Shown: positions 19,828 through 36,443, counted from the first letter of the stretch. The stretch: DNA of 64,000 nucleotides from an uncultured Desulfovibrionaceae bacterium (GCA_949741925.1 CATJOY010000029.1:4185-68184); one strand, 5' to 3'. Numbers and translations: made by a program. Notes: generated by a model from the sequence alone, not told the origin.

Positions 19828-20232
19828 ATTCCGAAGATAGCGCTGCCGCCGGGTAAAGCCAAGTGAGAATGCAGGAAGCGCGCTGCATAATAAAATACCA
19901 ATCATTTTCTTACGGAGGGAGGGCCGCAGGGGGCTTTTGCTCGGAAAGAGTCCCCGGGCTAGGATGCTCTCTACTCGAGGCGTCGGAGGAACATTTTTGC
20001 CGTCAAGGAGTCTTTTTTCTCCTTCTTGCCTGAGAAACCAGTGGATATTTCGCAGAGAAAACAGCGTGGGAAACAGTCTTCGGAAACGGAGCGTTACGCA
20101 GGGAATTCTTGCATTATCTCCTAAGGTGTGCTTATTCTGCACAAAATTGACCAGCATAAGGCCGTGCAAAGGGCTGCCCCGGTGTGGTTGCCGGGCAGTT
20201 CCCCGGGCTCGGCGCAACCAGGCCGGGGGGGT

Positions 20233-21673
20233 TATGGCCGCGAATCGACCTGAAGAAGATGACGATATTTTTGATCTTGCCGCGGTTATGGCCGAGACTG
20301 GATCAGAAGATGATGATATTTTTGATCTTACCGACGTGGTAAATCAAGGAGCCGCATCCGGTCCAACCCCGGGGCCCGATGCCCCGCCCGCGGTGGGTGG
20401 TGGCTCCGGCGCTGATTTCGGCGCTGATCTGGACGCACTTCTAGATAGCCTGACCGGGGATACCTTGGCCCCGACTGAACCCGCCCCCGGGCAACCCGTG
20501 GCTCCTCCGCCGAGCGCCGCCCCCATTAAGGATCCGACGCCCGCGGATCACCCCGTGGATCCTCACGAAACCATTCCTGAAGCGGAAAGCTCCGATATAG
20601 ATTCTCTGTTGGCGGAACTCGGCATTGCGGAAAGCGATTCTCCCGCCCCCAAACCGGCCGCGGCGGCGGTTTCTCCCCAAGAGAGCAGGGATTCTGCCGC
20701 CAAACCCCGGCCCGTGCTTGATGATCTTCCTGAAGACCTGGCGGCGGTGATGGCGCCGCTCCCTCATCCGGCTTCTGATGGTTCGGAGGCGGGCCTCAAG
20801 GCCGCGGCGGCGAGGGCTCCCATTGCGATGGAGGAACTGCCTGATCTTTCGATGCCTCCCGCGGCCGCTTCGCGCGCCGGGGAAGCCGGGGCAGCCCCGG
20901 CCGCCTTTGAAGCGCCCGCGGCTTCTGCTCCTGCTTTTCCCGAGGATATTGCCGCTGCCTCTCCGGTCGCGCCCGGCGCGCCTCGCTCATCCGGCACAGA
21001 GGCTGAAAACATCGATTTGCACGGGCTGGATGCGCTGCTTGATACCATGCTTTCTTCCGCCCCGGCTTCGGGGCACGGCAGTGGCGCGGATGCTGAGAGC
21101 GAACACCGGGAGCCGCTCGCTCGAGCCGGAGGCCAGGACGCCGGGGGGGGAGGCAGACAGCCTGCCCTTGAGGCCGCTGCCGTGCCTTTGCCCGCCGCCG
21201 CGCAGGTCGGTACAGTCGGAACCTCTCCTGCTCCGGTTGCAGCGCCGCCCTTTGATCCGAGTGTTCTGGAAGGCAGGCTGGAGGTTCTGGATGAGGCCCT
21301 GAAAGCCGTGCGGGAGAATGTTACGGCTGTGCAGGGCAATGTAGGAGCTATACAGGAGAATATTAGGGCCGTTCAAGAAAATGTGGCGGAGGTCCAGGAA
21401 AACCTCAAAGGCGTCCAGGAGAACGTTACCGCCGCATCCCAGCGTTTCGTTCCCTCAGAAACGTTGGAGAAGAGGGTGGAAGCCCTGCTTGCCCCAGGTT
21501 CCCCGTTGCTGGCGGGCATCACTTCTGCCGTGCTTGGAGCCCTGGTTGAGGAGATACACAACGCCTCAGGCGGTGCGGGCAACGAATCCCTGCAAGCGGC
21601 TCTTGAAAAAATGACGGCTGCTGCCGCTGCGAAAATTATTCGTGAAGAATTGGTCAATCTAACCGAAAACTGA
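20233..21673 (+). CDS. acidic Pro/Ala-rich, probably disordered protein with a C-terminal heptad-repeat segment (480 aa)
   Basis: ATG at 20233 (MAANRPEEDDDIFDL). The DDDIFDL motif occurs twice and three D-x-D-(A/S)-LL motifs are present. Six 7-aa repeats run ENVTAVQ to ENVTAAS. No enzymatic motif was seen. Confidence 0.6.
21314..21439 (+). repeat. 6 x 21-bp imperfect tandem repeat inside the acidic protein gene
   Basis: gagaatgttacggctgtgcag / ggcaatgtaggagctatacag / gagaatattagggccgttcaa / gaaaatgtggcggaggtccag / gaaaacctcaaaggcgtccag / gagaacgttaccgccgcatcc. Confidence 0.9.
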
Positions 21674-22446: not shown

Positions 22447-23193
22447 TTGAGCGTAGCGGCCATGTTTGGGCGCATCGCCTGCGGCTATGATCGGGCCAAC
22501 CGCTTGCTTAGCGGTGGGCTGGATATTTTGTGGCGGCGGCGCATGGTTGCCGAAGTGATCCGGGCGCTTAACGATGCGCCGCCTTTCGCGGGCGGGGCTG
22601 CGGACCAGGGGAAGCGCCCGGCGGGGCATCGCGTGCTGGATCTTGCGGCAGGCACCATGGATGTTTCTCTGGGGTTGGCCGAGGCGTTGCCCGGCTCTGT
22701 TGTCCTGGCCGCTGATTTTTGCCTGCCCATGCTTTTGGCCGGGGAGGTCAAGCGGCAAAGGAGGCAGCCCTGTTCCTCCGCTGGCCGGGTCTTGCCGCTG
22801 GCGGCTGATGGTTTTGCCTTGCCCTTGCCCGCTCATGCCGTGCACGCCGTGACGTTGGCCTTTGGTTTGCGTAATATGCAGCCGCGTTCAGCAGCCCTGG
22901 CGGAAATTTTTCGCGTTTTGACGCCGGGCGGCCGTCTTTATGTTCTTGAATTTGGTTCAGCCGGAGGAAAGCTTTGGGGCGGCCTCTACAATATCTATTT
23001 GCGTCATCTGCTTCCCCGCGTCGGCGGACTGTTGGCCGGCGATCGGGCGGCGTATGATTACCTTGCCACAACCATTGAGGAATTTCCTCCGGCAGGGGAA
23101 TTGGGTCGGGAGATGCTTGCGGTCGGTTTTTGCAGCGTTCGACCTATCCGGCTCAGCGGTGGCATAGTTTTCTTGCATATCGCCGAGAAATAG
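22447..23193 (+). CDS. ubiE: demethylmenaquinone/ubiquinone methyltransferase (UbiE/MenG family)
   Basis: FGRIACGYDRANRLLSGGLDILWRR, SAM motif VLDLAAGT, and LTPGGRLYVLEF. The start is uncertain (TTG 22447 or ATG 22462). Confidence 0.85.
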   Translation: MSVAAMFGRIACGYDRANRLLSGGLDILWRRRMVAEVIRALNDAPPFAGGAADQGKRPAGHRVLDLAAGTMDVSLGLAEALPGSVVLAADFCLPMLLAGEVKRQRRQPCSSAGRVLPLAADGFALPLPAHAVHAVTLAFGLRNMQPRSAALAEIFRVLTPGGRLYVLEFGSAGGKLWGGLYNIYLRHLLPRVGGLLAGDRAAYDYLATTIEEFPPAGELGREMLAVGFCSVRPIRLSGGIVFLHIAEK

Positions 23194-23584: not shown

Positions 23585-24898
23585 ATGCATCAGACAACAG
23601 ATAAATTACCCTCGTCTCCCCGTATTGCCGTAGTGGGACTCGGCTATGTGGGGTTGCCCCTGGCCGTGGCTCTGGCCCGTCATTTTCCCCTGACCGGCTT
23701 TGATATATCCCAGGAGAGGATCGCCGAGCTGCAAAGAGGGGAGGATCATACCCGAGAAGTAGCCTCCGCGGATCTCGCCGGATCCGGCGCGTTCTTTACC
23801 TGCGATCCTGCAAAGCTTGAGGATGCCAGGGTTATTATTGTTGCTGTGCCGACTCCGGTGGATGCTCATAATAATCCTAATCTTAAGCCGGTGAAGAACG
23901 CCTGCGTCACGGTAGGACGTCATATGCGCCCCGGTACTGTCGTCGTGTTTGAATCCACGGTGTACCCCGGCGTTACTGAGGATGTTTGCGTGCCCATTTT
24001 GGAAGAGGAGTCGGGCTTAGCATTTGGCCGGGATTTTTCAGTAGGCTATTCGCCGGAGCGGATCAACCCCGGCGATCGAGTTCATACCTTGGAGAATGTG
24101 GTCAAGATTGTTTCCGCCAGCGATGCCCGGAGCCTGGATCTGTTGGCTTCCATTTACGGCGCTGTTGTTGCGGCGGGCGTTCATAAGGCCCCTTCCATCA
24201 AAGTGGCGGAAGCAGCCAAGGTTATCGAAAACACCCAGCGGGATCTGAATATTGCTCTGATGAACGAATTGGCGGTGATTTTCCACAAACTCGGTATCGA
24301 TACCCTGGATGTACTGGAAGCCGCCGGCACCAAGTGGAATTTCTTGCCGTTTCGGCCGGGCTTGGTTGGCGGGCACTGCATCGGGGTAGATCCCTACTAC
24401 CTGACCTATAAGGCCGAAGAACAAGGCTATGCGCCGCAGGTGATCCTTGCGGGACGGCGCATTAACGACTTCATGGGCAAATATGTCGCCGAGCAAACTG
24501 TCAAAATGCTGATCGACCAGGGCAAGCAGGTCAAGGGAGCACGGGTAGGGCTTTTAGGGCTTACCTTTAAGGAGAATGTGCCGGATCTTCGGAATTCCAA
24601 AGTTGTGGATATCATCCACGAGCTGGAGACCTTTGGGGTGGAAGTTTTGGTAAACGATCCTCTGGCGGATCCTGCCGAAGCCCGGGCCGAGTATGGCTGC
24701 ACGCTTCAGCCCTTGGATGCTTTTGTTACCCTGGATGCCCTGGTGCTGACCGTGGGGCACCAGGAGTATGCTTCTCTTGGCCTGGCCGGATTAGCCTCCC
24801 GTTTCACCGCCGGAACAAAGCCTTTGCTTTTGGATGTGAAAAGCTTTTGGAACCGGGAAGAGGCGTCAGCCCTCGGCTATGAGTACTGGCGTCTGTGA
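23585..24898 (+). CDS. UDP-N-acetyl-hexosamine 6-dehydrogenase (TviB/WbpO-like nucleotide-sugar dehydrogenase)
   Basis: VVGLGYVGLPLAVALA, ESTVYPGVTEDVCVPILEE, SIKVAEAAKVIENTQRDLNIALMNELA and KWNFLPFRPGLVGGHCIGVDPYYL are near-collinear with S. Typhi TviB. Confidence 0.9.
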   Translation: MHQTTDKLPSSPRIAVVGLGYVGLPLAVALARHFPLTGFDISQERIAELQRGEDHTREVASADLAGSGAFFTCDPAKLEDARVIIVAVPTPVDAHNNPNLKPVKNACVTVGRHMRPGTVVVFESTVYPGVTEDVCVPILEEESGLAFGRDFSVGYSPERINPGDRVHTLENVVKIVSASDARSLDLLASIYGAVVAAGVHKAPSIKVAEAAKVIENTQRDLNIALMNELAVIFHKLGIDTLDVLEAAGTKWNFLPFRPGLVGGHCIGVDPYYLTYKAEEQGYAPQVILAGRRINDFMGKYVAEQTVKMLIDQGKQVKGARVGLLGLTFKENVPDLRNSKVVDIIHELETFGVEVLVNDPLADPAEARAEYGCTLQPLDAFVTLDALVLTVGHQEYASLGLAGLASRFTAGTKPLLLDVKSFWNREEASALGYEYWRL

Positions 24899-25024: not shown

Positions 25025-25990
25025 ATGCGTGAGCTGAAACGTCAGTTGCAGGAAGAGCGGAAACGCATCAATGCCGTGTTGGAACGCGAGTGTTCCCTAC
25101 TGCCTCCGTTGGTCAGGCCGGTGGCCGAGCATATTCTCAATTCCGGGGGCAAACGTCTGCGTCCGCTGCTGACGGCCTTTATGGCTAAGGTCTTTGATTG
25201 TGATCATGCCGATATTTACGATCTCGGCGCGGCCGTTGAACTTTGCCATATGGCCACGCTTCTGCATGACGATATTTTTGACCATGCCGCGACCCGGCGG
25301 GGTAAAACCTCGGCTCACGCCATTTTCGGGGTTACCCCGGTCATGCTTGCGGGAGACGCTATGTTAGGGCAGGCCGCTCATTTGGCCTCCAGGCAGTGCA
25401 ACGGCGACATCGTTTCCTGCTTTGGCCAGGCCATTGTGCATACCGCTCAGGGCGAGGTTGCCGAGTTTCAGAGCCTTGGGCGGATCGATCTGCCTTACGA
25501 GGAATACTTGGAGATTATATCCGGCAAGACCGCCTGGGCCCTGCGCTCGGCCTGCGAAGTGGCCGCCATCCGCAGCGGCGCGGAGCCGGAAGCCGTTCAG
25601 GCCGCTGCCCGCTTCGGCATGGAGCTGGGCATAGCCTTCCAGATCATTGACGATGCTTTGGATATCGCTCCGGAAAAAATCATCGGCAAACCCGCCGGAG
25701 GCGATATCCGGGAGGGCAAGAGCACTCCGTTGATCCGCTTTTACTGGGAAAGCCTGCCTTCGGATCGGGCTGCCGCCTTTGCCGCAAAATTCAAGGAACG
25801 CAGTTTTGAGGAAAGTGAAGTGCAGGCGGCCATTGAGGCGATGCGCAAGGAGAAGCTGGATGTGCGGACCCGCCGTCTGGCCGCGCAGCATCTCCAAAAC
25901 GCTCTGGAGGCCCTGAAGGTTTTGCCTGAAGGCCCGGGCCGCGATACCCTGGTTAAAGTTTCCGAGTTCATCTGTTCCAGGAACAACTGA
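25025..25990 (+). CDS. long-chain trans-polyprenyl diphosphate synthase (IspB/HepT-like)
   Basis: GGKRLRPLL, first Asp-rich motif LLHDDIFDHAATRRG, second motif FQIIDDALD. Confidence 0.85.
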   Translation: MRELKRQLQEERKRINAVLERECSLLPPLVRPVAEHILNSGGKRLRPLLTAFMAKVFDCDHADIYDLGAAVELCHMATLLHDDIFDHAATRRGKTSAHAIFGVTPVMLAGDAMLGQAAHLASRQCNGDIVSCFGQAIVHTAQGEVAEFQSLGRIDLPYEEYLEIISGKTAWALRSACEVAAIRSGAEPEAVQAAARFGMELGIAFQIIDDALDIAPEKIIGKPAGGDIREGKSTPLIRFYWESLPSDRAAAFAAKFKERSFEESEVQAAIEAMRKEKLDVRTRRLAAQHLQNALEALKVLPEGPGRDTLVKVSEFICSRNN

Positions 25991-26064
25991 CGCAGTTCGG
26001 CGGCCGGGAGGGTTTCTGCACAGGGCGGGCCTGCGCCGCCCTGTGAGCAGAGGCCTCGCGCGCT

Positions 26065-29000
26065 GTGGTGACAGTACGCATCCAAAGTATGCTCGAGTAC
26101 CTGTATTATCTTTGCATTGCTCCCCTTGAAGGTCTGATGCGCTGGCTTCTTGAGGGAGGCTATTCTCTTACCGGATCCTGGGGCGCCTCTCTGGTGCTGC
26201 TCAGCCTGGCGGTCAATACGCTCCTCCTGCCTCTCTACCATCTGGCCGAATCCTGGCAGGAGGCGGAACGGGCCAAACAAGCGGCCATGGCCGCGAAGCT
26301 GGCAGAGATCAAGGCTGTTTTTAAAGGCAGAGAGCGCTATATGCTGGTGCGTACCTTGTACCGCCAGCATCGCTACCATCCGGTTATGGCCGTGCGGACC
26401 AGTTTTGGCTTTCTGATCCAGGTGCCTTTTTTCTTTGCGGCCTTTCATCTGCTGAACGACTTTGCGCCACTGCGCGGCGTGAGCCTTTGGGGCATCGCTG
26501 ATCTGGCCGCGCCAGATAGGCTGCTGCATGTGGGCCCTTACCATTTCAATGTGCTCCCTTTTGTGATGACCGGCGCCAACGTCCTTTCCGCCGCCGTGTA
26601 CACAACGCGCTTGACCCTTAGGGAGAAGCGGCGGCTCTGGCTGATCGCCGCATTGTTTTTGGCGCTGCTCTACACCTCTTCGGCGGCCCTGCTGCTTTAC
26701 TGGACTTGCAACAATATCTTTTCCCTGTTCAAAAATCTGGTTTACGCGCGCTGGGTTTACCGGGATGCACCCGGTCAAGCCGCTGCCGGTGCCGGTCTGT
26801 TCCATGCGGCGGAGTCGGTCGGCTCGCCGGGGCGCTTCGGTCGAGTAGAGCCCGCCGAGAGTAGCGGACAAAGGGACGCCGCTCCTCGAGCAGGAGCCGC
26901 CCCGGCCGAGAGCACCGGGAAGGGATACGCCTCGAAGGCGGCTTTGGGGATTGCCCCGGCTCCTTCCGCCGGAAGGACCGCCCTTTTGCTGACGCTGGTT
27001 TCTTTCTTGGCGGGACTGGCCTTTTTTATCTACGGCGATCTCTTGCGCAAGGCCACGAGCCTTGCCGCATATGAACCGCAGGCGATCTACGCCTTCGCGG
27101 CCTTGCTGTTTGCTGCAGCCTTGTTCTTCAGCACCCGCAGGCCGGGGCGGCAGTCCACCTTTTCTTTGATCCTGCCCGCTGTATTCCTTATCGGCAGTAT
27201 GGCAATGCTGTTGGTCTGGGGGCTTACCCCTGCCAAGAAAGTGCAAACCGCTGCCGGATGGATCTATTACCGGCTCATGGCTGTGAACACTGGACTTATG
27301 ACAGCGGTTATCCTGAGCGTTTCCCCTTTTTCCTCCCTCCTTGCCCGGTTGGCCCGCAAGGCCGCCTTGTTTATGGAGCCCGGTACGGCTTTCCGGTTGG
27401 GGGTGGCGTCTCTCGCAGCTTTTTGCGCTGTGAGCCTGCTCTATACCCCGGGGGTAGTCTTTTGTTCGGATCCGGAGTTCTTTTATGAGAGCGCCGCCCT
27501 TATTTTTGCCCGCCTGACCTTGATTTCCCTGGCCCTGCTGGCCGCCGGGATAAGCCTTCTGCGTTCGGCAACCGGCGAAGGAAAGCCCCTTCCGGCCATT
27601 TTGCTGGCTTGGATCGGTTTGCTGGCCTGCCTGTATACCTTTCTCGCGCCGGGCGATTACGGCAATATGGATGAATTTACGCTTTTGGATACCCACCTTT
27701 TAGAGAGTCTGTGGTTCCTTGTCCCAGATATACTGATCCCTGCGGGGGCTCTCCTCCTCCTTCTCCTGCTGCTCCGCAAAGGCTACGCCGCCGCCCTCAC
27801 CCGGACTCTGGCCGGGGTAGCTCTGGTTTTGACGCTGCTTACCGCCTTCCGCTTGGGCGTCATAGAGCAGCCGCCTTTGCCTACCCGAGGGGAAGTCTCC
27901 GCCCGGCTTCCGGATTATAACGACGCGCTCTTTGGGTTCAGTAAGACAGGCTCCAATATTCTGGTCATCATGTTGGATATGTTCAGCGGGGGCCACGTGG
28001 AGCGCATGTTTGCTGAAGACCCGGACCTCCTCCGCCGTTTTCGCGGGTTTACCTGGTATCCGGATACGCTGGCTCCCGGCGCGACGACCTTTCTCTCCCT
28101 GGCTTCCTTGTTTGGCGGCGAGGAGTATACGCCCTCGGCCGTCAATGCCCGGCGGACGGCATCGCTGGCCGAAGAACAGAACAAGGCCTATGCCCTGTTA
28201 CCCTCGATCCTGGCTGCTAGGGATTTTGCTGTTGCTCTTGCCGAGATCGAAGGTTTGCAACCGGATCTCTTTATGAAGCATTTTTCTTCTGATCGGCCAG
28301 TTACGTTGGTGGGCAGATCTATCCGGACTGCCTATGCCGGATACTGGCGGGCCAAGAAGGGCCTGCCGGGCCGTGAGCCGGATTCCCTGGCTCCGTTTCT
28401 TGCGGCCATGGGTATTTTCCGGGCTTCCCCTTGGCTGCTGCGCCGCGATATGTATAACGACGGCGCCTGGATGAACAGCATTGCTTATAAAAATAACCGC
28501 AGTGAAGGGCCCTATGCGCTGCTCGATGTTTTGCCGGATGTTGCCCATGCCGAAAGCCCGCGCAGTACCTTCAAGTTTATCACCAGCCAAATCAGCCATT
28601 ACCCGTGGCAGTTGGACGGTCTGACCTGCCTGCCCGCCGACAGTCACTCCTCGGCCCGCGAGGAGGATGGCATAATCACCCGGCACTACTACGCCGAGCG
28701 GTGCGCCATGCGGAGCCTGGGCCGTTTTTTTGACTGGATGCGCGAGCGGGGAATTTTTAATAACACCATGATCATTCTCGTCTCGGATCACGACGCCGAT
28801 GATAGCCCGGCTATCGGCCCTGCCTTTGACAGCTTGCGCAACGGTTCCGTTCCCTGGAAGCCTCACGCGCTGCTGATGGTCAAAAATCCGCAAGCCCAAG
28901 GGCCCTGGCGGGCAAATATGCAGCCTATGGCCTCAAGCGATCTGCCCGCGCTTATTTGCAATGAATTCGGCCCTTGCCCCGGTCTGGATGGTCCAGACCC

Positions 29001-29166
29001 CCTCGACCTTGACCCGGCGACACGGGTGCGCATCCACAGCTCCGGCTTGGCCGTGCCCGCCCGGCATAAACGGGATCGCTTTATCACCAGAGATTACGCT
29101 GTCACTGGTTCCATGTTTGAGCCTGAGAACTGGCGCGCGCTCCCCCCGGAAGGCAAGAACCAATGA
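26065..29166 (+). CDS. fusion protein: YidC/Oxa1-like core, Ala/Gly/Pro linker, about nine TM helices, periplasmic LtaS/sulfatase-type (alkaline-phosphatase superfamily) transferase domain (1033 aa)
   Basis: N-terminal part: LLLPLYHLAESWQEAERAKQAAMAAKLAEIKAVFKGRERYMLVRTLYRQHRYHPVMA...GFLIQVPFFFAAFHLL...LLLYWTCNNIFSLFKN. C-terminal part: NILVIMLDMFSGGH, GATTFLSLASLFGG, SHYPW, MIILVSDHD. The start is GTG 26065 or ATG 26089. Confidence 0.7.
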   Translation: MVTVRIQSMLEYLYYLCIAPLEGLMRWLLEGGYSLTGSWGASLVLLSLAVNTLLLPLYHLAESWQEAERAKQAAMAAKLAEIKAVFKGRERYMLVRTLYRQHRYHPVMAVRTSFGFLIQVPFFFAAFHLLNDFAPLRGVSLWGIADLAAPDRLLHVGPYHFNVLPFVMTGANVLSAAVYTTRLTLREKRRLWLIAALFLALLYTSSAALLLYWTCNNIFSLFKNLVYARWVYRDAPGQAAAGAGLFHAAESVGSPGRFGRVEPAESSGQRDAAPRAGAAPAESTGKGYASKAALGIAPAPSAGRTALLLTLVSFLAGLAFFIYGDLLRKATSLAAYEPQAIYAFAALLFAAALFFSTRRPGRQSTFSLILPAVFLIGSMAMLLVWGLTPAKKVQTAAGWIYYRLMAVNTGLMTAVILSVSPFSSLLARLARKAALFMEPGTAFRLGVASLAAFCAVSLLYTPGVVFCSDPEFFYESAALIFARLTLISLALLAAGISLLRSATGEGKPLPAILLAWIGLLACLYTFLAPGDYGNMDEFTLLDTHLLESLWFLVPDILIPAGALLLLLLLLRKGYAAALTRTLAGVALVLTLLTAFRLGVIEQPPLPTRGEVSARLPDYNDALFGFSKTGSNILVIMLDMFSGGHVERMFAEDPDLLRRFRGFTWYPDTLAPGATTFLSLASLFGGEEYTPSAVNARRTASLAEEQNKAYALLPSILAARDFAVALAEIEGLQPDLFMKHFSSDRPVTLVGRSIRTAYAGYWRAKKGLPGREPDSLAPFLAAMGIFRASPWLLRRDMYNDGAWMNSIAYKNNRSEGPYALLDVLPDVAHAESPRSTFKFITSQISHYPWQLDGLTCLPADSHSSAREEDGIITRHYYAERCAMRSLGRFFDWMRERGIFNNTMIILVSDHDADDSPAIGPAFDSLRNGSVPWKPHALLMVKNPQAQGPWRANMQPMASSDLPALICNEFGPCPGLDGPDPLDLDPATRVRIHSSGLAVPARHKRDRFITRDYAVTGSMFEPENWRALPPEGKNQ

Positions 29167-30581
29167 GCGCGGCGCGAATTCTTGGCCTGGTCGGCGTGTA
29201 TCTTCTGGCGTTGCCCTCTCCGGCCTTGGCCTATCTTGATCCGGGAACCGGCAGTATGCTGCTCTCTGCCCTGATCGGTCTTGTGGCCACGGTCTTCTTT
29301 ATGCTTAAGGCCCTGTGGTATAAAAGCGCCTCCTTTTGGTATCGTCTGCGCGGCCTTGAGGCCCCTTCTTCCCGGGGCGACATTGTTTTTTACTCGGAAG
29401 GCCGCCAGTATTGGGCCACCTTTAAGCCCATTGTCGAAGCCCTGGAAAAGCGTGGCGCACCGTTACTCTATCTCAGTTCAGATTCCGGGGATCCCGGCCT
29501 TGCGGACCGCGCTGCCTCCAGCCGGGCCCGCTGCATAGGCAAGGGCAGCCGAGCCTTTGCCTTGCTCAATCTCCTGGAGGCAGATATCTGCGTGCTGACC
29601 ACACCGGGGCTGGATGTTTTACAGATCCGTCGTTCTCCCGGCGTAGCCCATTACAGCCACATGGTTCATGCCATTACGGATATGGCTTTTTACAAGCTCT
29701 ATTCCTTTGATTACTTCGATAGTATCTTGCTTGGCGGTCCCCACCAGTCCCGATCCCTGCGTTGGCTGGAATCGCTTCGCGGCACGCCGCCCAAGATGCT
29801 TCTGGAAACCGGCTGCCCGTATATGGACGTGTTGGCCTCCGAGCGCGGGCATGAGGCGGAGGAAAAAACCGCCTGTGATCCCCCCCCGGAGCTGCACGGT
29901 CAGGCGGTAAGCTCGGAAAGGCAGCCGGAGGATCAGGCCGGGAAAGTGAGTGGGAAAGGCCCGGGCATGCGGCCTGCCCTTCTTGTGGCTCCCACCTGGG
30001 GCCGCAACGGGCTGCTGACCCGTTTCGGCTTGGAACTGCTGCAGCCCCTGGCCGATGCCGGTTTCAGGCTGTGCATTCGGCCGCATCCCCAAAGTTCCCT
30101 TGCCGAGCCCGGGTTACTGCGGGAGCTTCAAGCCGCCTTGGCAAAACACCAGGCCGTATCCTGGGATTTTGGTCCCAGCCCCTTTGCGGCTATGCAGCGG
30201 GCTGATGTGCTGCTATCTGATCTTTCAGGCATTGTGTTTGACTTTGCCTTGATTTTTGAAAAACCTGTTTTGACCATGGAATTCACGCCTGATCTTCGGG
30301 GGCAGGAAGCCAATGATCTGCCCTGGAGGGCTTGGGAACTGGAAATCTTGCCCCGTCTTGGCCAAACTCTTTGCCCGGCTGATATACCGCGCCTGCCGGA
30401 AATTATCGCCGGTCTTCCTCCTGCGGAGGTCTTTGTTCCGGCTATGCGAAGCCTGCGCGCCGCAAGCCTGTATAACTTCAAGCGCAGCGGCGAGGTGGCC
30501 GCGGGGCAGCTCCTGGCGATTCAGGCCGGTATCAGGGCGCGTCGGGAGGAGGGAAGGCTACCCGGCGCCGCTGCGGTGTGA
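29163..30581 (+). CDS. CDP-glycerol glycerophosphotransferase-like enzyme (TagB/TagF family) with N-terminal membrane anchor
   Basis: The start overlaps the upstream stop as ATGA. N-terminus AYLDPGTGSMLLSALIGLVATVFFML. C-terminal half carries LLVAPTWGRNGL, LCIRPHPQS and DVLLSDLSGIVFDFALIFEKPVL. Confidence 0.7.
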   Translation: MSAARILGLVGVYLLALPSPALAYLDPGTGSMLLSALIGLVATVFFMLKALWYKSASFWYRLRGLEAPSSRGDIVFYSEGRQYWATFKPIVEALEKRGAPLLYLSSDSGDPGLADRAASSRARCIGKGSRAFALLNLLEADICVLTTPGLDVLQIRRSPGVAHYSHMVHAITDMAFYKLYSFDYFDSILLGGPHQSRSLRWLESLRGTPPKMLLETGCPYMDVLASERGHEAEEKTACDPPPELHGQAVSSERQPEDQAGKVSGKGPGMRPALLVAPTWGRNGLLTRFGLELLQPLADAGFRLCIRPHPQSSLAEPGLLRELQAALAKHQAVSWDFGPSPFAAMQRADVLLSDLSGIVFDFALIFEKPVLTMEFTPDLRGQEANDLPWRAWELEILPRLGQTLCPADIPRLPEIIAGLPPAEVFVPAMRSLRAASLYNFKRSGEVAAGQLLAIQAGIRARREEGRLPGAAAV

Positions 30582-30696: not shown

Positions 30697-31173
30697 GTGA
30701 GCAAAAAACGTATTTTGGTGGATCTTTCCGCCACCTTGTTGCACCACGGTCACATCCGTCTGCTGCAAAAAGCTGCTGAACTTGGCTCCGTGGTTGTCGG
30801 GTTGACCACCGATGATGAGGTGTTGGGCAAAAAGGGCTACACGCCGGAGCTGCCTTTTGCGGCCCGCAAGGAAATCCTGGAGAGCATCCGCTACGTGGAT
30901 GAAGTCCTACCCAGCCCCTGGCTCATCGACGATGCGTATCTGGAACGGCACAACATTGATCTTTTGGTGCACGGCGACGATAATTCCAACCATGTGGCCA
31001 GGGAAAAACTGGTTATCTTCCCCCGGACCGAAGGCATCAGCAGCTCCGAAATGCGCGAGCGCGTCCTTGATACCATCATTGCCCTTAACCTGGGCAACAA
31101 CCCCGGCTTGACCTCGGAAAAGTTGGCGGATCTTTTGATCCGTACCATAAAAAAGGAATTCCGGCTCGATTGA
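30697..31173 (+). CDS. tagD: glycerol-3-phosphate cytidylyltransferase-like enzyme (TagD family)
   Basis: LLHHGHIRLLQKAAELG (HxGH), IRYVDEVLP, HNIDLLVHGDD and FPRTEGISSSEMRERV are collinear with B. subtilis TagD. GTG start. Substrate is not provable from sequence. Confidence 0.75.
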   Translation: MSKKRILVDLSATLLHHGHIRLLQKAAELGSVVVGLTTDDEVLGKKGYTPELPFAARKEILESIRYVDEVLPSPWLIDDAYLERHNIDLLVHGDDNSNHVAREKLVIFPRTEGISSSEMRERVLDTIIALNLGNNPGLTSEKLADLLIRTIKKEFRLD

Positions 31174-33909: not shown

Positions 33910-34779
33910 TCAGGCGTGCAGAAGCTTTTGCAGGCGGGCGCGAAGGCCTTCTCGGAGATCTTCATCCTGAAGGGCGAAATAGATGTTGGCGGTCAGGTAA
34001 TCCACCCAGTCTCCGGCGTCAAAGCGCACGCCGTTCATTTTTACCGCGATCATGCCCTTGGCTGTGCACAGTTCCTGCATAGCGTCGGTCAACTGGATTT
34101 CCCCGCCATGACCGGGTTTTCCGGCGGCCAGAAAATCGAAAAGCTCCGGGGTCAGCACATAGCGGCCGACAATAGCCAGGTTGGAAGGGGCTTTGTCGAT
34201 ATCCGGTTTTTCCACAAGCTGGCTGACCTCATAAATGCCAGGAGAGGTTTCCTTCCCGGCTACAATGCCGTAACGGTTAACTTTATCCCGCGGCACTTCC
34301 ATGACGCCCACAGTGGGCAGGCCGGTTGCCCGGGTGATATCCAGAAGCTGGGAAAGACCGGCGTTTTCGCCGAAAATGAGGTCATCGCCAACCATAATGC
34401 CAAAGGCATCATCCCCGGCAACGGCCTCCCGGGCGCAAAGTACGGCGTGGCCGAGGCCAAGCTGGCGTTTCTGGCGGATGGAGATGACGTTGACCATTTC
34501 CGCAACGGCCCGGATTTCCTCCAGGAGTTTGGTCTTGCCGCCCCGCTCAAGCACGGCTTCGAGTTGGAGGTTGTAATCGAAGTGGTCTTCGATGGCGTTT
34601 TTATCGCGGTTGGTGATAAAAACCACATCCTTAATGCCGCCGCGCATGGCTTCTTCAACCACGTACTGGACCACCGGCTTTTTGTAGATGGGCAGCATTT
34701 CCTTGGGAATGTTTTTTGATGCCGGGAGCGAACGAGTGCCCCAGCCCGCCACGGGAATTATGACTTTGCGGATGTTCAT
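33910..34779 (-). CDS. galU: UTP--glucose-1-phosphate uridylyltransferase
   Basis: Start MNIRKVIIPVAGWGTRSLPASKNIPKEMLPI follows aaggagg. VEKP motif (LVEKPDIDKAPSNLAIVGRYVL). Confidence 0.93.
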   Translation of the reverse strand: MNIRKVIIPVAGWGTRSLPASKNIPKEMLPIYKKPVVQYVVEEAMRGGIKDVVFITNRDKNAIEDHFDYNLQLEAVLERGGKTKLLEEIRAVAEMVNVISIRQKRQLGLGHAVLCAREAVAGDDAFGIMVGDDLIFGENAGLSQLLDITRATGLPTVGVMEVPRDKVNRYGIVAGKETSPGIYEVSQLVEKPDIDKAPSNLAIVGRYVLTPELFDFLAAGKPGHGGEIQLTDAMQELCTAKGMIAVKMNGVRFDAGDWVDYLTANIYFALQDEDLREGLRARLQKLLHA

Positions 34780-34920
34780 GCAGCCTCCTTTGTGCATAAG
34801 GGTGCCTTGAGGTTCCTGGATGCGCCGGGCGCTTTATCACATACCGTTATCCCTGTCTCTTCAGGGCGAAAAGTAGATTATCCATAGCAACGGAACTTCT
34901 GCCGATCCAGGGCATCCGGC

Positions 34921-36270
34921 TTACAGTGCGTTCCTGATGGCTTCGGCCAGCTCTTCGGCCACGATGCCCACCCGATCCGGGTTTTCTCCTTCGACCATAA
35001 CCCGAGCCAGGGGCTCTGTTCCGGAATAGCGCAACAGCACCCGCCCCCTGTCGCCGAGTTCCTGTTCGGCAGCAGCCACGGCGGCGGCCACGGCCGGGCA
35101 TTCCGCAAAGGGTTGCTTGCGGCTGACCGGTACGTTGATCAGTTTTTGTGGGAAAAGCTCGAGCAGGTGAGCCAGTTCCGAGAGCTTTTTGCCGGATTCG
35201 CGCATAATGCGCAGAAGTTGCAAGGCCGCCAGCAAACCATCGCCGGTGGTGTTGTGCTCCATGAAGATAAGGTGCCCTGATTGCTCGCCCCCCAGCGTCG
35301 CTCCGACCTTGCGCATGGCCTCTACGACATAGCGGTCGCCAACGTCCGTACGGATCAGTTCCCCGCCGTGTTCGCGCATAAAGATTTCCAAGGCCATATT
35401 GCTCATGACGGTACTGACCAACTTCCTTCCGGGAAGCTTATCCCGCCGCATCAGATCCAGGGCGCAGATAGCCATGATTTGATCTCCATCCAGCACCCGG
35501 CCCGTTTCGTCTACGACAATCAGGCGGTCTGCGTCGCCATCCAGGGCCAGGCCGATATCAGCCCGGGATTCAAGCACTTTGGCCGCGGCCACCTCGGGAT
35601 GGAGAGAGCCGCAGCCGTGGTTGATGTTCAGGCCATCAGGCGAGGCGCCAAGGCGCAGCACTTCCGCGCCGAGTTCCTCCAAGGCCAAGGGCGCAACCTT
35701 GTAGTTGGCTCCGTTGGCGCAATCGATGACCACGCGCAGGCCATCCAGATTGATGTGCGGGGGAATGCTGGCCTTGATGGCCACAATATACCGTCCCGGA
35801 GCATCGGTGATTCGGAAGGCGCGGCCGACCTTTTCCGGCGCCGGATAGGGCCACTCACGATCCGCATCCAGAGCCATGGCGGCAATGTCATCTTCTACGG
35901 AATCCGGCAGTTTAAAGCCCCGGTTGTCGAAAAATTTGATGCCGTTGTCATGAAAGGGGTTATGGGAAGCGGAAATAACAATGCCGCAGTCGGCCCGCAT
36001 GTTGCGGGTCAGAAAAGCGATGGCCGGGGTGGGCAGAGGGCCCACTTGAAACACGTCCATACCGGCCGCGCAGAGCCCGGCGGTAAGGGCCGCCTCGTAA
36101 ATATAGCCGGAAAGCCGGGTATCTTTGCCGATAACAACCCGGTGGCGGCGGTTGCCCTCCCGAAACTGAACTCCGGCGGCAAGCCCCAGGCGCAAAGCCG
36201 TCTCCGGCAGCATGGGATAACGGTTGACCCTGCCCCGGACGCCATCGGTGCCAAAAAGACGTTTTTTCAT
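34921..36270 (-). CDS. glmM: phosphoglucosamine mutase
   Basis: Start [13 protein letters not shown] (36270). Phosphoserine loop [15 protein letters not shown], then DGDADR and GGEQSGH. Confidence 0.95.
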
Positions 36271-36443
36271 ACACGGTCCCCCGTTCTGGAGCGTTATACG
36301 CTGAGGGCTATCTACAACACGCGCTTTCCCCGCTTCAGGAACCATAAGCCCGGCAAGACGATGGGACAAAAGCCCCTGCCATGCGCCGGCACACAGCGCC
36401 GTCGCCGCGAGAGCCTCTTACCGCCCCGAAGACTAATACAGCC

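Follow-up and report, generated by a model that had tools for sequence, protein, structure and literature searches.

What does a YidC/Oxa1-type fold do when it forms the N-terminus of an enzyme that appears to modify the cell envelope? The question is raised by an open reading frame (ORF) in a 64,000-nucleotide stretch of DNA from an uncultured Desulfovibrionaceae bacterium (GCA_949741925.1, CATJOY010000029.1:4185-68184; the whole stretch is called the window here), in which a YidC/Oxa1-like module is joined to a polytopic membrane domain and a predicted transferase domain of the alkaline-phosphatase (AP) superfamily. We found that the fusion gene is widespread and is followed, in loci from several phyla, by a gene for a TagF-like transferase with an unusual membrane anchor. 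That these two proteins cooperate in a pathway decorating the envelope with a head group activated by cytidine triphosphate (CTP) we consider probable. Our main reading, to which we give a probability of about 0.5, is that a relay of two proteins would carry out this decoration, with the fusion as the arm that spans the membrane and reaches into the periplasm. The fullest form of the proposal, that a branch of the YidC/Oxa1 family is no longer an insertase and instead clamps the TagF-like anchor and moves a lipid-linked phosphonate head group to the fused transferase, is speculative, and we would sooner doubt than assert it.

The fusion ORF and its architecture

The ORF comprises 1033 codons with no internal stop, and every peptide that the original prediction had quoted from it was recovered in the translation. 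Because the family consensus opens with MxxxLYxLxIxPLE, translation probably starts at ATG 26089 (Met9) and not at GTG 26065. The protein divides as follows (aa, amino acids; pLDDT, predicted local distance difference test score):

26065..29166, plus strand: whole fusion ORF, 1033 aa; probable true start ATG 26089
26089..26769, plus strand: YidC/Oxa1-like module, aa 9-235, assigned by PF02096 and Foldseek
26788..26955, plus strand: disordered cytoplasmic linker rich in Ala, Gly, Pro and Arg, aa 242-297, pLDDT below 50, 7 Lys plus Arg
26965..27861, plus strand: nine-helix membrane domain, aa 301-599, assigned by hydropathy and an AlphaFold model
27922..29154, plus strand: AP-superfamily transferase domain, aa 620-1030, assigned by profile, Foldseek and invariant residues

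The low-complexity, poorly conserved linker would suit a sequencing or assembly artefact joining a yidC paralogue to a transferase gene, a caution that accompanied the original prediction. An independent Logan assembly (SRR9924476) contains a 100% identical 1033-aa ORF with the same neighbours, and hundreds of full-length homologues, spread over many phyla and produced by many different assemblers, have the same architecture. On these two grounds we rejected the artefact, including a frameshift, and give it hardly any credence.

Hydropathy placed five transmembrane (TM) helices in residues 1-235 and nine between 301 and 600, and the structural models agreed. The 14 predicted helices leave 25 Lys and Arg in cytoplasmic loops versus 6 in periplasmic loops, and the linker is therefore predicted to be cytoplasmic and the AP domain periplasmic. 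A full-length AlphaFold2 model built on a 66-sequence alignment reached a pLDDT of 90.2 and a predicted template-modelling score (pTM) of 0.85, with the linker as its sole disordered part; a model of aa 1-616 reached 88.6 and 0.81. This pTM, attained despite a 55-aa disordered linker, suggests packing of the YidC-like module against the nine-helix domain. Conserved motifs of that domain face the periplasm: Y-x-P...SDP-x-x-F after TM10 and DYG-x-x-D-x-F between TM12 and TM13. When the aa 1-616 model was compared by Foldseek with the Protein Data Bank (PDB), YidC chains alone were returned and every other match had E>1, so that this search gave no relative of the nine-helix domain and returned no known flippase or LtaS/EptA membrane domain. 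The predicted order, with a YidC/Oxa1 core first, then the low-complexity linker, the nine helices and finally the LtaS/EptA-type domain, was thus borne out by Pfam, the models and Foldseek.

A protein search gave 138 relatives at E<=0.001. The 120 matches listed are 764-1068 aa long, with PF02096 in all and PF00884 in many; they come from Desulfovibrionaceae, Photobacterium, Treponema/Leadbettera, Nitrospiraceae and others and, where named, are labelled 'YidC/Oxa1 family membrane protein insertase'. Scanning one genome per species yielded at least 587 confirmed matches and added Sutterella, Bacteroidales, Verrucomicrobia, Helicobacteraceae and Leptospirales. Against 1.84 billion cluster representatives, the N-terminal module matched 1021 clusters (50% identity) at E<=1e-30; among the 150 clusters listed it begins within the first 35 residues, and most of the proteins have 800-1100 aa. 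The fusion architecture is therefore not rare but widespread. More than 1000 clusters share the module. The claim that no YidC-LtaS-type fusion had been described stands: full-text literature searches likewise gave no paper on the fusion or its architecture.

A 651-aa ORF on the opposite strand (25741-27696, minus strand) overlaps the first half of the fusion gene and is probably a shadow ORF of GC-rich coding sequence.

The YidC-like module departs in sequence from YidC insertases

Besides five TM helices the module has an interfacial helix and a coiled coil on the cytoplasmic side. PF02096 (60KD_IMP) matches aa 39-227 over profile positions 1-161 of 163 (E=1.4e-19, 71.1 bits against a gathering score of 35), as the original prediction had expected of the N-terminus. 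The five-TM core with its cytoplasmic helical hairpin between TM1 and TM2 is present in the aa 1-616 model, which superposes on B. halodurans YidC (3wo6; TMt 0.76, root-mean-square deviation (rmsd) 3.5 A, 229 columns) and on E. coli YidC (6al2; rmsd 3.9 A). Together with the coiled coil, the Q-x-P motif in TM2 and Y...N in TM5 are shared with YidC, Oxa1 and Alb3.

Several features set the module apart from these proteins. NCBIfam returned YidC models only, none passing its equivalog cut-off: the best scored 72.2 bits against 891, and TIGR03592 scored 67.7 bits, below its cut-off of 84.3. The module also lies outside the usual yidC gene context: it always either forms the N-terminus of a larger enzyme or has a TagF-like gene as its neighbour. 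In a profile alignment, the conserved groove arginine R366 of E. coli, whose B. halodurans equivalent we take to be R72, falls on Asn51 (26215-26217). Neither Arg nor Lys occurs in this column in any of the 66 aligned members, 64 of which carry Asn (54), Thr (7) or Ser (3) and the other two Gly and Val. All 66 sequences have N162, N172 and T214, and 65 have N216. N162 faces a gap in the alignment with E. coli, whose residues at the other three positions are Phe, Ile and Ser. These additional invariant Asn and Thr residues are located in TM3 and TM5 of the module; Q119 (E. coli Q429) and N217 are retained.

With more than 20 invariant residues, the module is also better conserved than any other part. 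Across the 66 sequences, identity to the window protein averages 54% in the module, 32% in the AP domain, 20% in the nine-TM domain and 13% in the linker. Paralogues within the same genome show the same pattern more sharply, with 82-95% identity in the module and 31-64% in the remainder; tandem paralogues gave 89% versus 31% (L052) and 95% versus 43% (L028). From these sequence comparisons the module appears specialised, its YidC fold apparently selected for a role different from general protein insertion. The suggestion that the groove may serve the attached transferase and not general protein insertion is consistent with the arginine loss, the conservation of the module and the natural variants described below.

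The conservative alternative is that the module is a dedicated insertase or chaperone, either for its own polypeptide, whose nine-helix domain it would insert and whose large periplasmic domain it would export, or for the TagF-like anchor, handling no lipid, with the remaining pathway unchanged and flipping carried out elsewhere or unneeded. The YidC fold and Pfam membership favour it, and a large periplasmic domain behind many TM helices would be a demanding client. The groove arginine is nevertheless missing in 66 of 66 members, the scores lie far under every YidC equivalog cut-off, and each tandem paralogue retains its own module at 82-95% identity although one insertase per cell suffices. 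To our knowledge, EptA, LtaS and PbgA need no private insertase.

A TagF-like partner with a dedicated N-terminal anchor

Directly after the fusion gene lies a gene for a TagF-like enzyme:

29163..30581, plus strand: TagF-like (PF04464-type) transferase, 472 aa; its start overlaps the fusion stop codon by 4 nucleotides (nt)
29163..29306, plus strand: N-terminal anchor of this protein, a signal-peptide-like segment ending ALA, then YLDPGTGS, a TM helix and Lys/Arg
29232-29255, plus strand: YLDPGTGS motif, aa 24-31 of the TagF-like ORF, invariant

PF04464 matched the window protein weakly (19.3 bits, cut-off 22.1), and its homologues carry precomputed PF04464 matches. A profile of 31 TagF-like orthologues matched Cps3D (8qoy, E=2e-8), TagF (3l7i, E=1e-5) and TarL (3e-5), with the invariant RPHPQ of the family aligned to the RMH of TagF. 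The resemblance to TagF, TagB, TarL and Cps3D lies in the C-terminal half of the glycosyltransferase-B (GT-B) fold and the region of the R-x-H motif. The partner differs from TagF, TarL and Cps3D in its N-terminal Y-x-DPGTGS tail and TM helix, and in a gene context that suggests CMP-phosphonate donors and not CDP-glycerol (CMP and CDP, cytidine mono- and diphosphate).

We counted adjacency in 48 genome loci with at least 2 kb of flank on each side. A TagF-like gene lay within 300 nt of the fusion, always on the same strand, in 41 of them and within 4.3 kb in 4 more; the commonest spacing was the 4-nt overlap, which recurs across phyla. A reciprocal metagenome search that started from the TagF-like alignment met a YidC-like ORF in 34 of 40 adequately flanked loci, adjacent in 30. 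The same TagF-like gene follows the fusion in Photobacterium, Leadbettera and an uncultured Desulfovibrionaceae genome.

All orthologues carry the anchor, in which an invariant Y-[IL]-D-P-G-[TS]-G-S leads into a hydrophobic helix with Lys/Arg behind it. Proteobacterial members, including that of the window, have a signal-peptide-like segment ending A-x-A before the motif (MSAARILGLVGVYLLALPSPALA / YLDPGTGS...), and in Treponema the motif starts 3-8 residues past the Met. It was seen 64 times in related loci, solely in TagF-like ORFs and including 59 of 65 clustered members, and the combination of a Y-x-DPGTGS tail and a TM helix was absent from the other gene families of the 83 loci in the genome set. 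The predicted topology has a short N-out tail, a single membrane crossing and the catalytic domain in the cytoplasm; the conserved Ser/Thr of the motif would then face the periplasm, near the AP domain.

Shared location could also arise if the fusion and the TagF-like enzyme acted independently on the same polysaccharide, the module being a leftover membrane anchor. Glycosyltransferases, epimerases and initiating sugar transferases do occur in many of the loci, and clustering of pathway genes is common. This account has to accommodate a 4-nt start/stop overlap recurring across phyla, a pairing found from both search directions, and a Leptospirales arrangement in which the TagF-like gene sits between separate YidC-like and TM-AP genes. 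A leftover anchor, moreover, is unlikely to be the best-conserved part of a protein, with its more than 20 invariant residues. We regard independence as very unlikely.

Predicted CTP-dependent activation and the nature of the head group

The third gene of the cassette encodes a predicted activating enzyme:

30697..31173, plus strand: PF01467 cytidylyltransferase, 158 aa; not a TagD equivalog

In Photobacterium, Sutterella and Desulfovibrionaceae, genes for stand-alone enzymes closely related to it (E 1e-63 to 1e-80) adjoin an ATP-binding cassette (ABC) importer of the PhnS2/T2/U2 type, whose binding protein passes TIGR03261 ('putative 2-aminoethylphosphonate') with 420.9 bits against 392.75. 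Spirochaetes, Leptospirales, Neptunomonas and Bacteroidales have the cassette together with phosphonate biosynthesis genes, namely a fusion of PF01467 with phosphoenolpyruvate (PEP) mutase and a phosphonopyruvate decarboxylase (Ppd). To these is added either an Fe-alcohol dehydrogenase (the 2-hydroxyethylphosphonate route) or a nucleotidyltransferase-aminotransferase fusion (PntC-AEPT). One such PntC-AEPT protein (L059) is a full-length orthologue of T. denticola Tde1415 (PDB 6pd1, E=1e-265), an enzyme that makes 2-aminoethylphosphonate (AEP) and CMP-AEP (Rice et al. 2019, PMC6697681). The same paper calls the 'phosphonyl tailoring' steps past nucleotidyl activation enigmatic. Judged by gene content, the head group in these related loci is 2-aminoethylphosphonate or 2-hydroxyethylphosphonate.

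Among known decoration systems, the cassette resembles the Lic (phosphocholine; LicA/C/D) and the proposed Pnt pathways, where surface glycans receive a head group that has first been activated with CTP. Fusion operons of related loci contain the same PntC-AEPT and Ppm-Ppd genes as Pnt, while the window has only the PF01467 cytidylyltransferase. The transfer step differs, being assigned to a cytoplasmic LicD-type transferase in Lic and Pnt. Our literature searches gave no YidC-like, TagF-like or AP-type component assigned to these pathways, and no description of a CMP-AEP transferase.

Two loci have a fusion of a helix-turn-helix (HTH) domain, a nucleotidyltransferase and a choline/ethanolamine kinase beside the cassette (L063:4992-6767 and L017:5307-7196), and a third has an HTH-nucleotidyltransferase with the kinase part missing (L015:4176-5069). 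The kinase in the first two suggests a phosphate ester head group (phosphocholine or phosphoethanolamine) in some systems, and the head group may vary between systems.

An alternative with no phosphonate in this organism is a teichoic-acid-like system built on glycerol phosphate: TagD would make CDP-glycerol, the TagF-like enzyme would prime or polymerise, and the fusion would act like LtaS or OpgB, adding glycerol phosphate in the periplasm or polymerising it there. TagD (1coz, E=1e-17) is indeed the best solved relative of the cytidylyltransferase and TIGR01518 its best NCBIfam model, the partner enzyme is of the TagF family, the AP domain finds its best sequence match in LtaS, and the window is devoid of phosphonate genes. 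TIGR01518, the TagD equivalog model, scored just 73.9 bits against a cut-off of 165.4, however, and ethanolamine-phosphate cytidylyltransferase and the CyTase domain of Fom1 score almost like TagD. The closest cytidylyltransferase relatives adjoin PhnS2/T2/U2-type importers or Ppd, Fe-alcohol dehydrogenase or AEPT genes, and clustering of neighbouring genes gave no recurrent gene for supplying glycerol 3-phosphate. We rate a glycerol-phosphate system as improbable. For the organism of the window we lean slightly towards a phosphonate head group.

A predicted LtaS/EptA-type transferase domain

The predicted active site of the AP domain maps as follows:

27976-27978, plus strand: D638, invariant
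28087-28089, plus strand: T675, invariant
28597-28599, plus strand: H845, present in 65/66
28786-28791, plus strand: D908-H909, invariant

D638, T675, D908 and H909 are conserved in 66 of 66 sequences and H845 in 65. PF00884 (Sulfatase), which the original prediction had expected at the C-terminus, stayed under threshold for the window protein (15.9 bits against a cut-off of 25), and many homologues carry a precomputed match. The family profile matched S. aureus LtaS (2w5q, E=6e-8), aligning the VSDH region with the GDH of LtaS, and Foldseek with the full model returned PbgA/YejM (6xlp), MCR-1 (9nww) and LtaS (4uor) at probability 1.0, as well as sulfatases. The model places D638 after strand 631-637, T675 at the start of helix 675-688 and D908-H909 after strand 901-906; the D-H region was assigned by residue-level alignment with LtaS, the Asp and the Thr by their position in the model. 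In LtaS/EptA-type enzymes the metal ligands and the Thr nucleophile occupy positions like those of D638, T675 and D908-H909. A Thr nucleophile in place of a Cys/Ser-derived formylglycine points to a phosphotransferase and away from a sulfatase. Profile and model together identify the C-terminal domain as a predicted LtaS/EptA-type AP-superfamily transferase, extracytoplasmic behind a polytopic membrane domain.

In the phosphoethanolamine transferases EptA, LptA and MCR-1 and the glycerophosphate transferases LtaS and OpgB, a periplasmic AP-fold domain likewise sits behind a polytopic membrane domain, and these enzymes share with the fusion the metal-binding acidic residue after strand 1, the Thr nucleophile at a helix N-terminus and the D-H pair. 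These families transfer a head group from a lipid donor by a ping-pong mechanism, the donor being phosphatidylethanolamine for EptA and phosphatidylglycerol for LtaS. They differ from the fusion in having five TM helices and no YidC module, compared with nine TM helices and a YidC fold here, and in drawing on bulk phospholipids, whereas the fusion is coupled to a pair of CTP-dependent cytoplasmic enzymes.

Natural variants separate the module from its transferase

The module also occurs on its own. Three Leptospirales genomes encode it as a separate protein of 230-235 aa (PF02096, E=8e-22); the TagF-like gene comes next, and after it one or two genes for proteins of 592-597 aa with an N-terminal polytopic region and the AP-type motifs LLIVFEAY, GAPTT and AGDHGP. 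The split Leptospirales systems lie at:

L045:1437-5259, split Leptospirales system
L047:1494-7207, split Leptospirales system
L049:10001-14055, split Leptospirales system

Stand-alone modules also lie beside TagF-like and PntC-AEPT genes in three metagenome loci (L108, L111 and L135); across Leptospirales and metagenomes their size is 230-255 aa. In a further variant (P0202, L085:8001-9857) VanW and G5 domains replace the nine-TM/AP part, and the gene ends an operon of TagF-like, cytidylyltransferase-Ppm, Ppd and PntC-AEPT genes. A fusion homologue of 1247 aa (P0164) has an extra C-terminal NPCBM carbohydrate-binding domain, a hint at a glycan acceptor.

From these variants we take the constant set to be the YidC-like module, the TagF-like enzyme and CTP-dependent activation, with a periplasmic module that varies. 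They also bear on the dedicated insertase: alone or with a non-AP C-terminus, the module still adjoins TagF-like and CMP-AEP genes. As it stays with the pathway in the variants, its constant partner would be the pathway and not a particular client. Taken with the altered groove and the retention of a module in each paralogue, we think a private insertase unlikely.

In many genomes one TagF-like gene goes with two to five fusion paralogues in tandem. Arrays with four to five copies were seen at L014:437-13066, L058:6987-20857 and L043:3349-16879: the first has one TagF-like gene, the second has none within the stretch, which ends inside the fifth copy, and the third, from T. putidum, has four fusion paralogues and two TagF-like genes. 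In Leadbettera azotonutricia (L003; 8224-8916 and 19886-22658) a second fusion copy lies in opposite orientation about 7 kb downstream with its own TagF-like gene, and a weak match to a CDP-alcohol phosphatidyltransferase gene was noted two genes upstream of the first copy.

A proposed head-group relay

The main reading can be set out in four steps. First, going by its family and orthologues, the cytidylyltransferase would make a CMP- or CDP-activated head group in the cytoplasm. Second, the membrane-anchored TagF-like enzyme would move the phosphonyl or phosphoryl head group onto the hydroxyl of an inner-leaflet lipid. Third, the YidC-like module would bind the TagF-like anchor, and its re-lined, arginine-free polar groove would let the lipid-linked head group cross the bilayer; a precedent for this step is that purified E. 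coli YidC scrambles nitrobenzoxadiazole-labelled phosphatidylethanolamine (NBD-PE) in liposomes (PMC11047089). Fourth, the nine-helix domain would present the lipid donor to the periplasmic AP-superfamily domain, where the head group would become covalently bound to Thr675 at the D638/D908/H909 metal site before being passed to an envelope acceptor, probably a glycan. The chemistry of this last step would copy that of EptA, LtaS and OpgB with bulk phospholipids (phosphatidylethanolamine for EptA, phosphatidylglycerol for LtaS). We propose further that paralogues would have near-identical modules and diverged outer parts because they share one TagF-like partner and each serve a different acceptor. 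That the module is a dock and head-group conduit, and not a protein insertase, is a tentative idea that we place a little short of an even bet.

The scheme resembles GtrA/GtrB/GtrC, ArnC/ArnEF/ArnT and CsbB/GtcA/YfhO, in which a cytoplasmic synthase hands its lipid-linked product through a small flipping module to a periplasmic transferase and the periplasmic transferases have multiplied for different acceptors. All three protein folds differ from those systems, and here the link is physical, through the fusion and translational coupling. Already known, then, are the three folds of the cassette and the 'make, flip, transfer' logic. New are the appearance of a YidC fold in a pathway of this kind, the dedicated N-out anchor of a TagF-type enzyme, a nine-helix domain that lacks a solved relative, and the link of all three to phosphonate surface tailoring; full-text literature searches gave no description of any of these features.

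Several observations weigh against this relay. The TagF-like anchor, a short acidic N-out tail with one TM helix, is shaped like a classic YidC substrate; with its Asp and its inside positive charges it is archetypal for the YidC-only route and fits a plain insertase equally well. Diacylglycerol, the simplest candidate for the lipid carrier and one that would close the cycle, is a guess. Within the 64-kb window there are no PEP mutase, Ppd, AEPT or PhnS2T2U2 genes, so that the head group in this genome rests on the orthology of the cytidylyltransferase, which is itself about equally near TagD, ethanolamine-phosphate cytidylyltransferase and the Fom1 CyTase domain. No activating gene appears in 36 of the 83 genome-set loci, many of them on short contigs, or in about one third of the loci of at least 12 kb in the TagF-centred set, and some loci have the HTH-nucleotidyltransferase-choline kinase gene instead.

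Genes around the cassette

The genes flanking the cassette in the window include:

22447-23193: UbiE-type methyltransferase, upstream of the fusion
23585-24898: TviB-like UDP-N-acetylglucosamine (UDP-GlcNAc) 6-dehydrogenase, 454 bits, under the equivalog cut-off of 592
25025-25990: long-chain polyprenyl diphosphate synthase, just upstream of the fusion
33910-34797: NTP_transferase
34921-36369: phosphoglucomutase

We considered the polyprenyl synthetase as a source of the carrier lipid and rejected it: the gene is non-recurrent in the 83 genome-set loci and sits with the UbiE methyltransferase, and on both counts the pair probably belongs to quinone synthesis. The flanking sugar-nucleotide genes fit a glycan acceptor, short of proof. 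Over 22.3-31.5 kb, a scan for promoters and terminators gave 2 promoter-like sites, fewer than the 3.1 expected, and nothing convincing as a terminator. A 578-aa ORF at 19937-21673 matched no Pfam domain significantly; at this place the independent assembly has a called gene of 479 aa, with no Pfam match recorded. Other genes of the window are ordinary for a Desulfovibrionaceae-like chromosome, among them those for pyruvate:ferredoxin oxidoreductase (PFOR), Pta, AcrAB, a methyl-accepting chemotaxis protein (MCP) and cardiolipin synthase.

Implications

The more than 1000 database clusters labelled 'YidC/Oxa1 family insertase' that carry this module are probably mis-described. N51, Q119, N162, N172, T214, N216 and N217 are residues clear enough for mutation. 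If the relay is true, the module would be the first natural member of the Oxa1 superfamily with a lipid as its physiological substrate, and the in vitro scrambling of lipids by an insertase (PMC11047089) would gain a natural case. The transferase machinery of bacterial phosphonate surface tailoring would likewise be identified, the cassette being a concrete and widespread candidate for the tailoring steps past phosphonate activation. Present in Treponema, Sutterella, Desulfovibrionaceae and Photobacterium, it may shape what these bacteria present at their surface.

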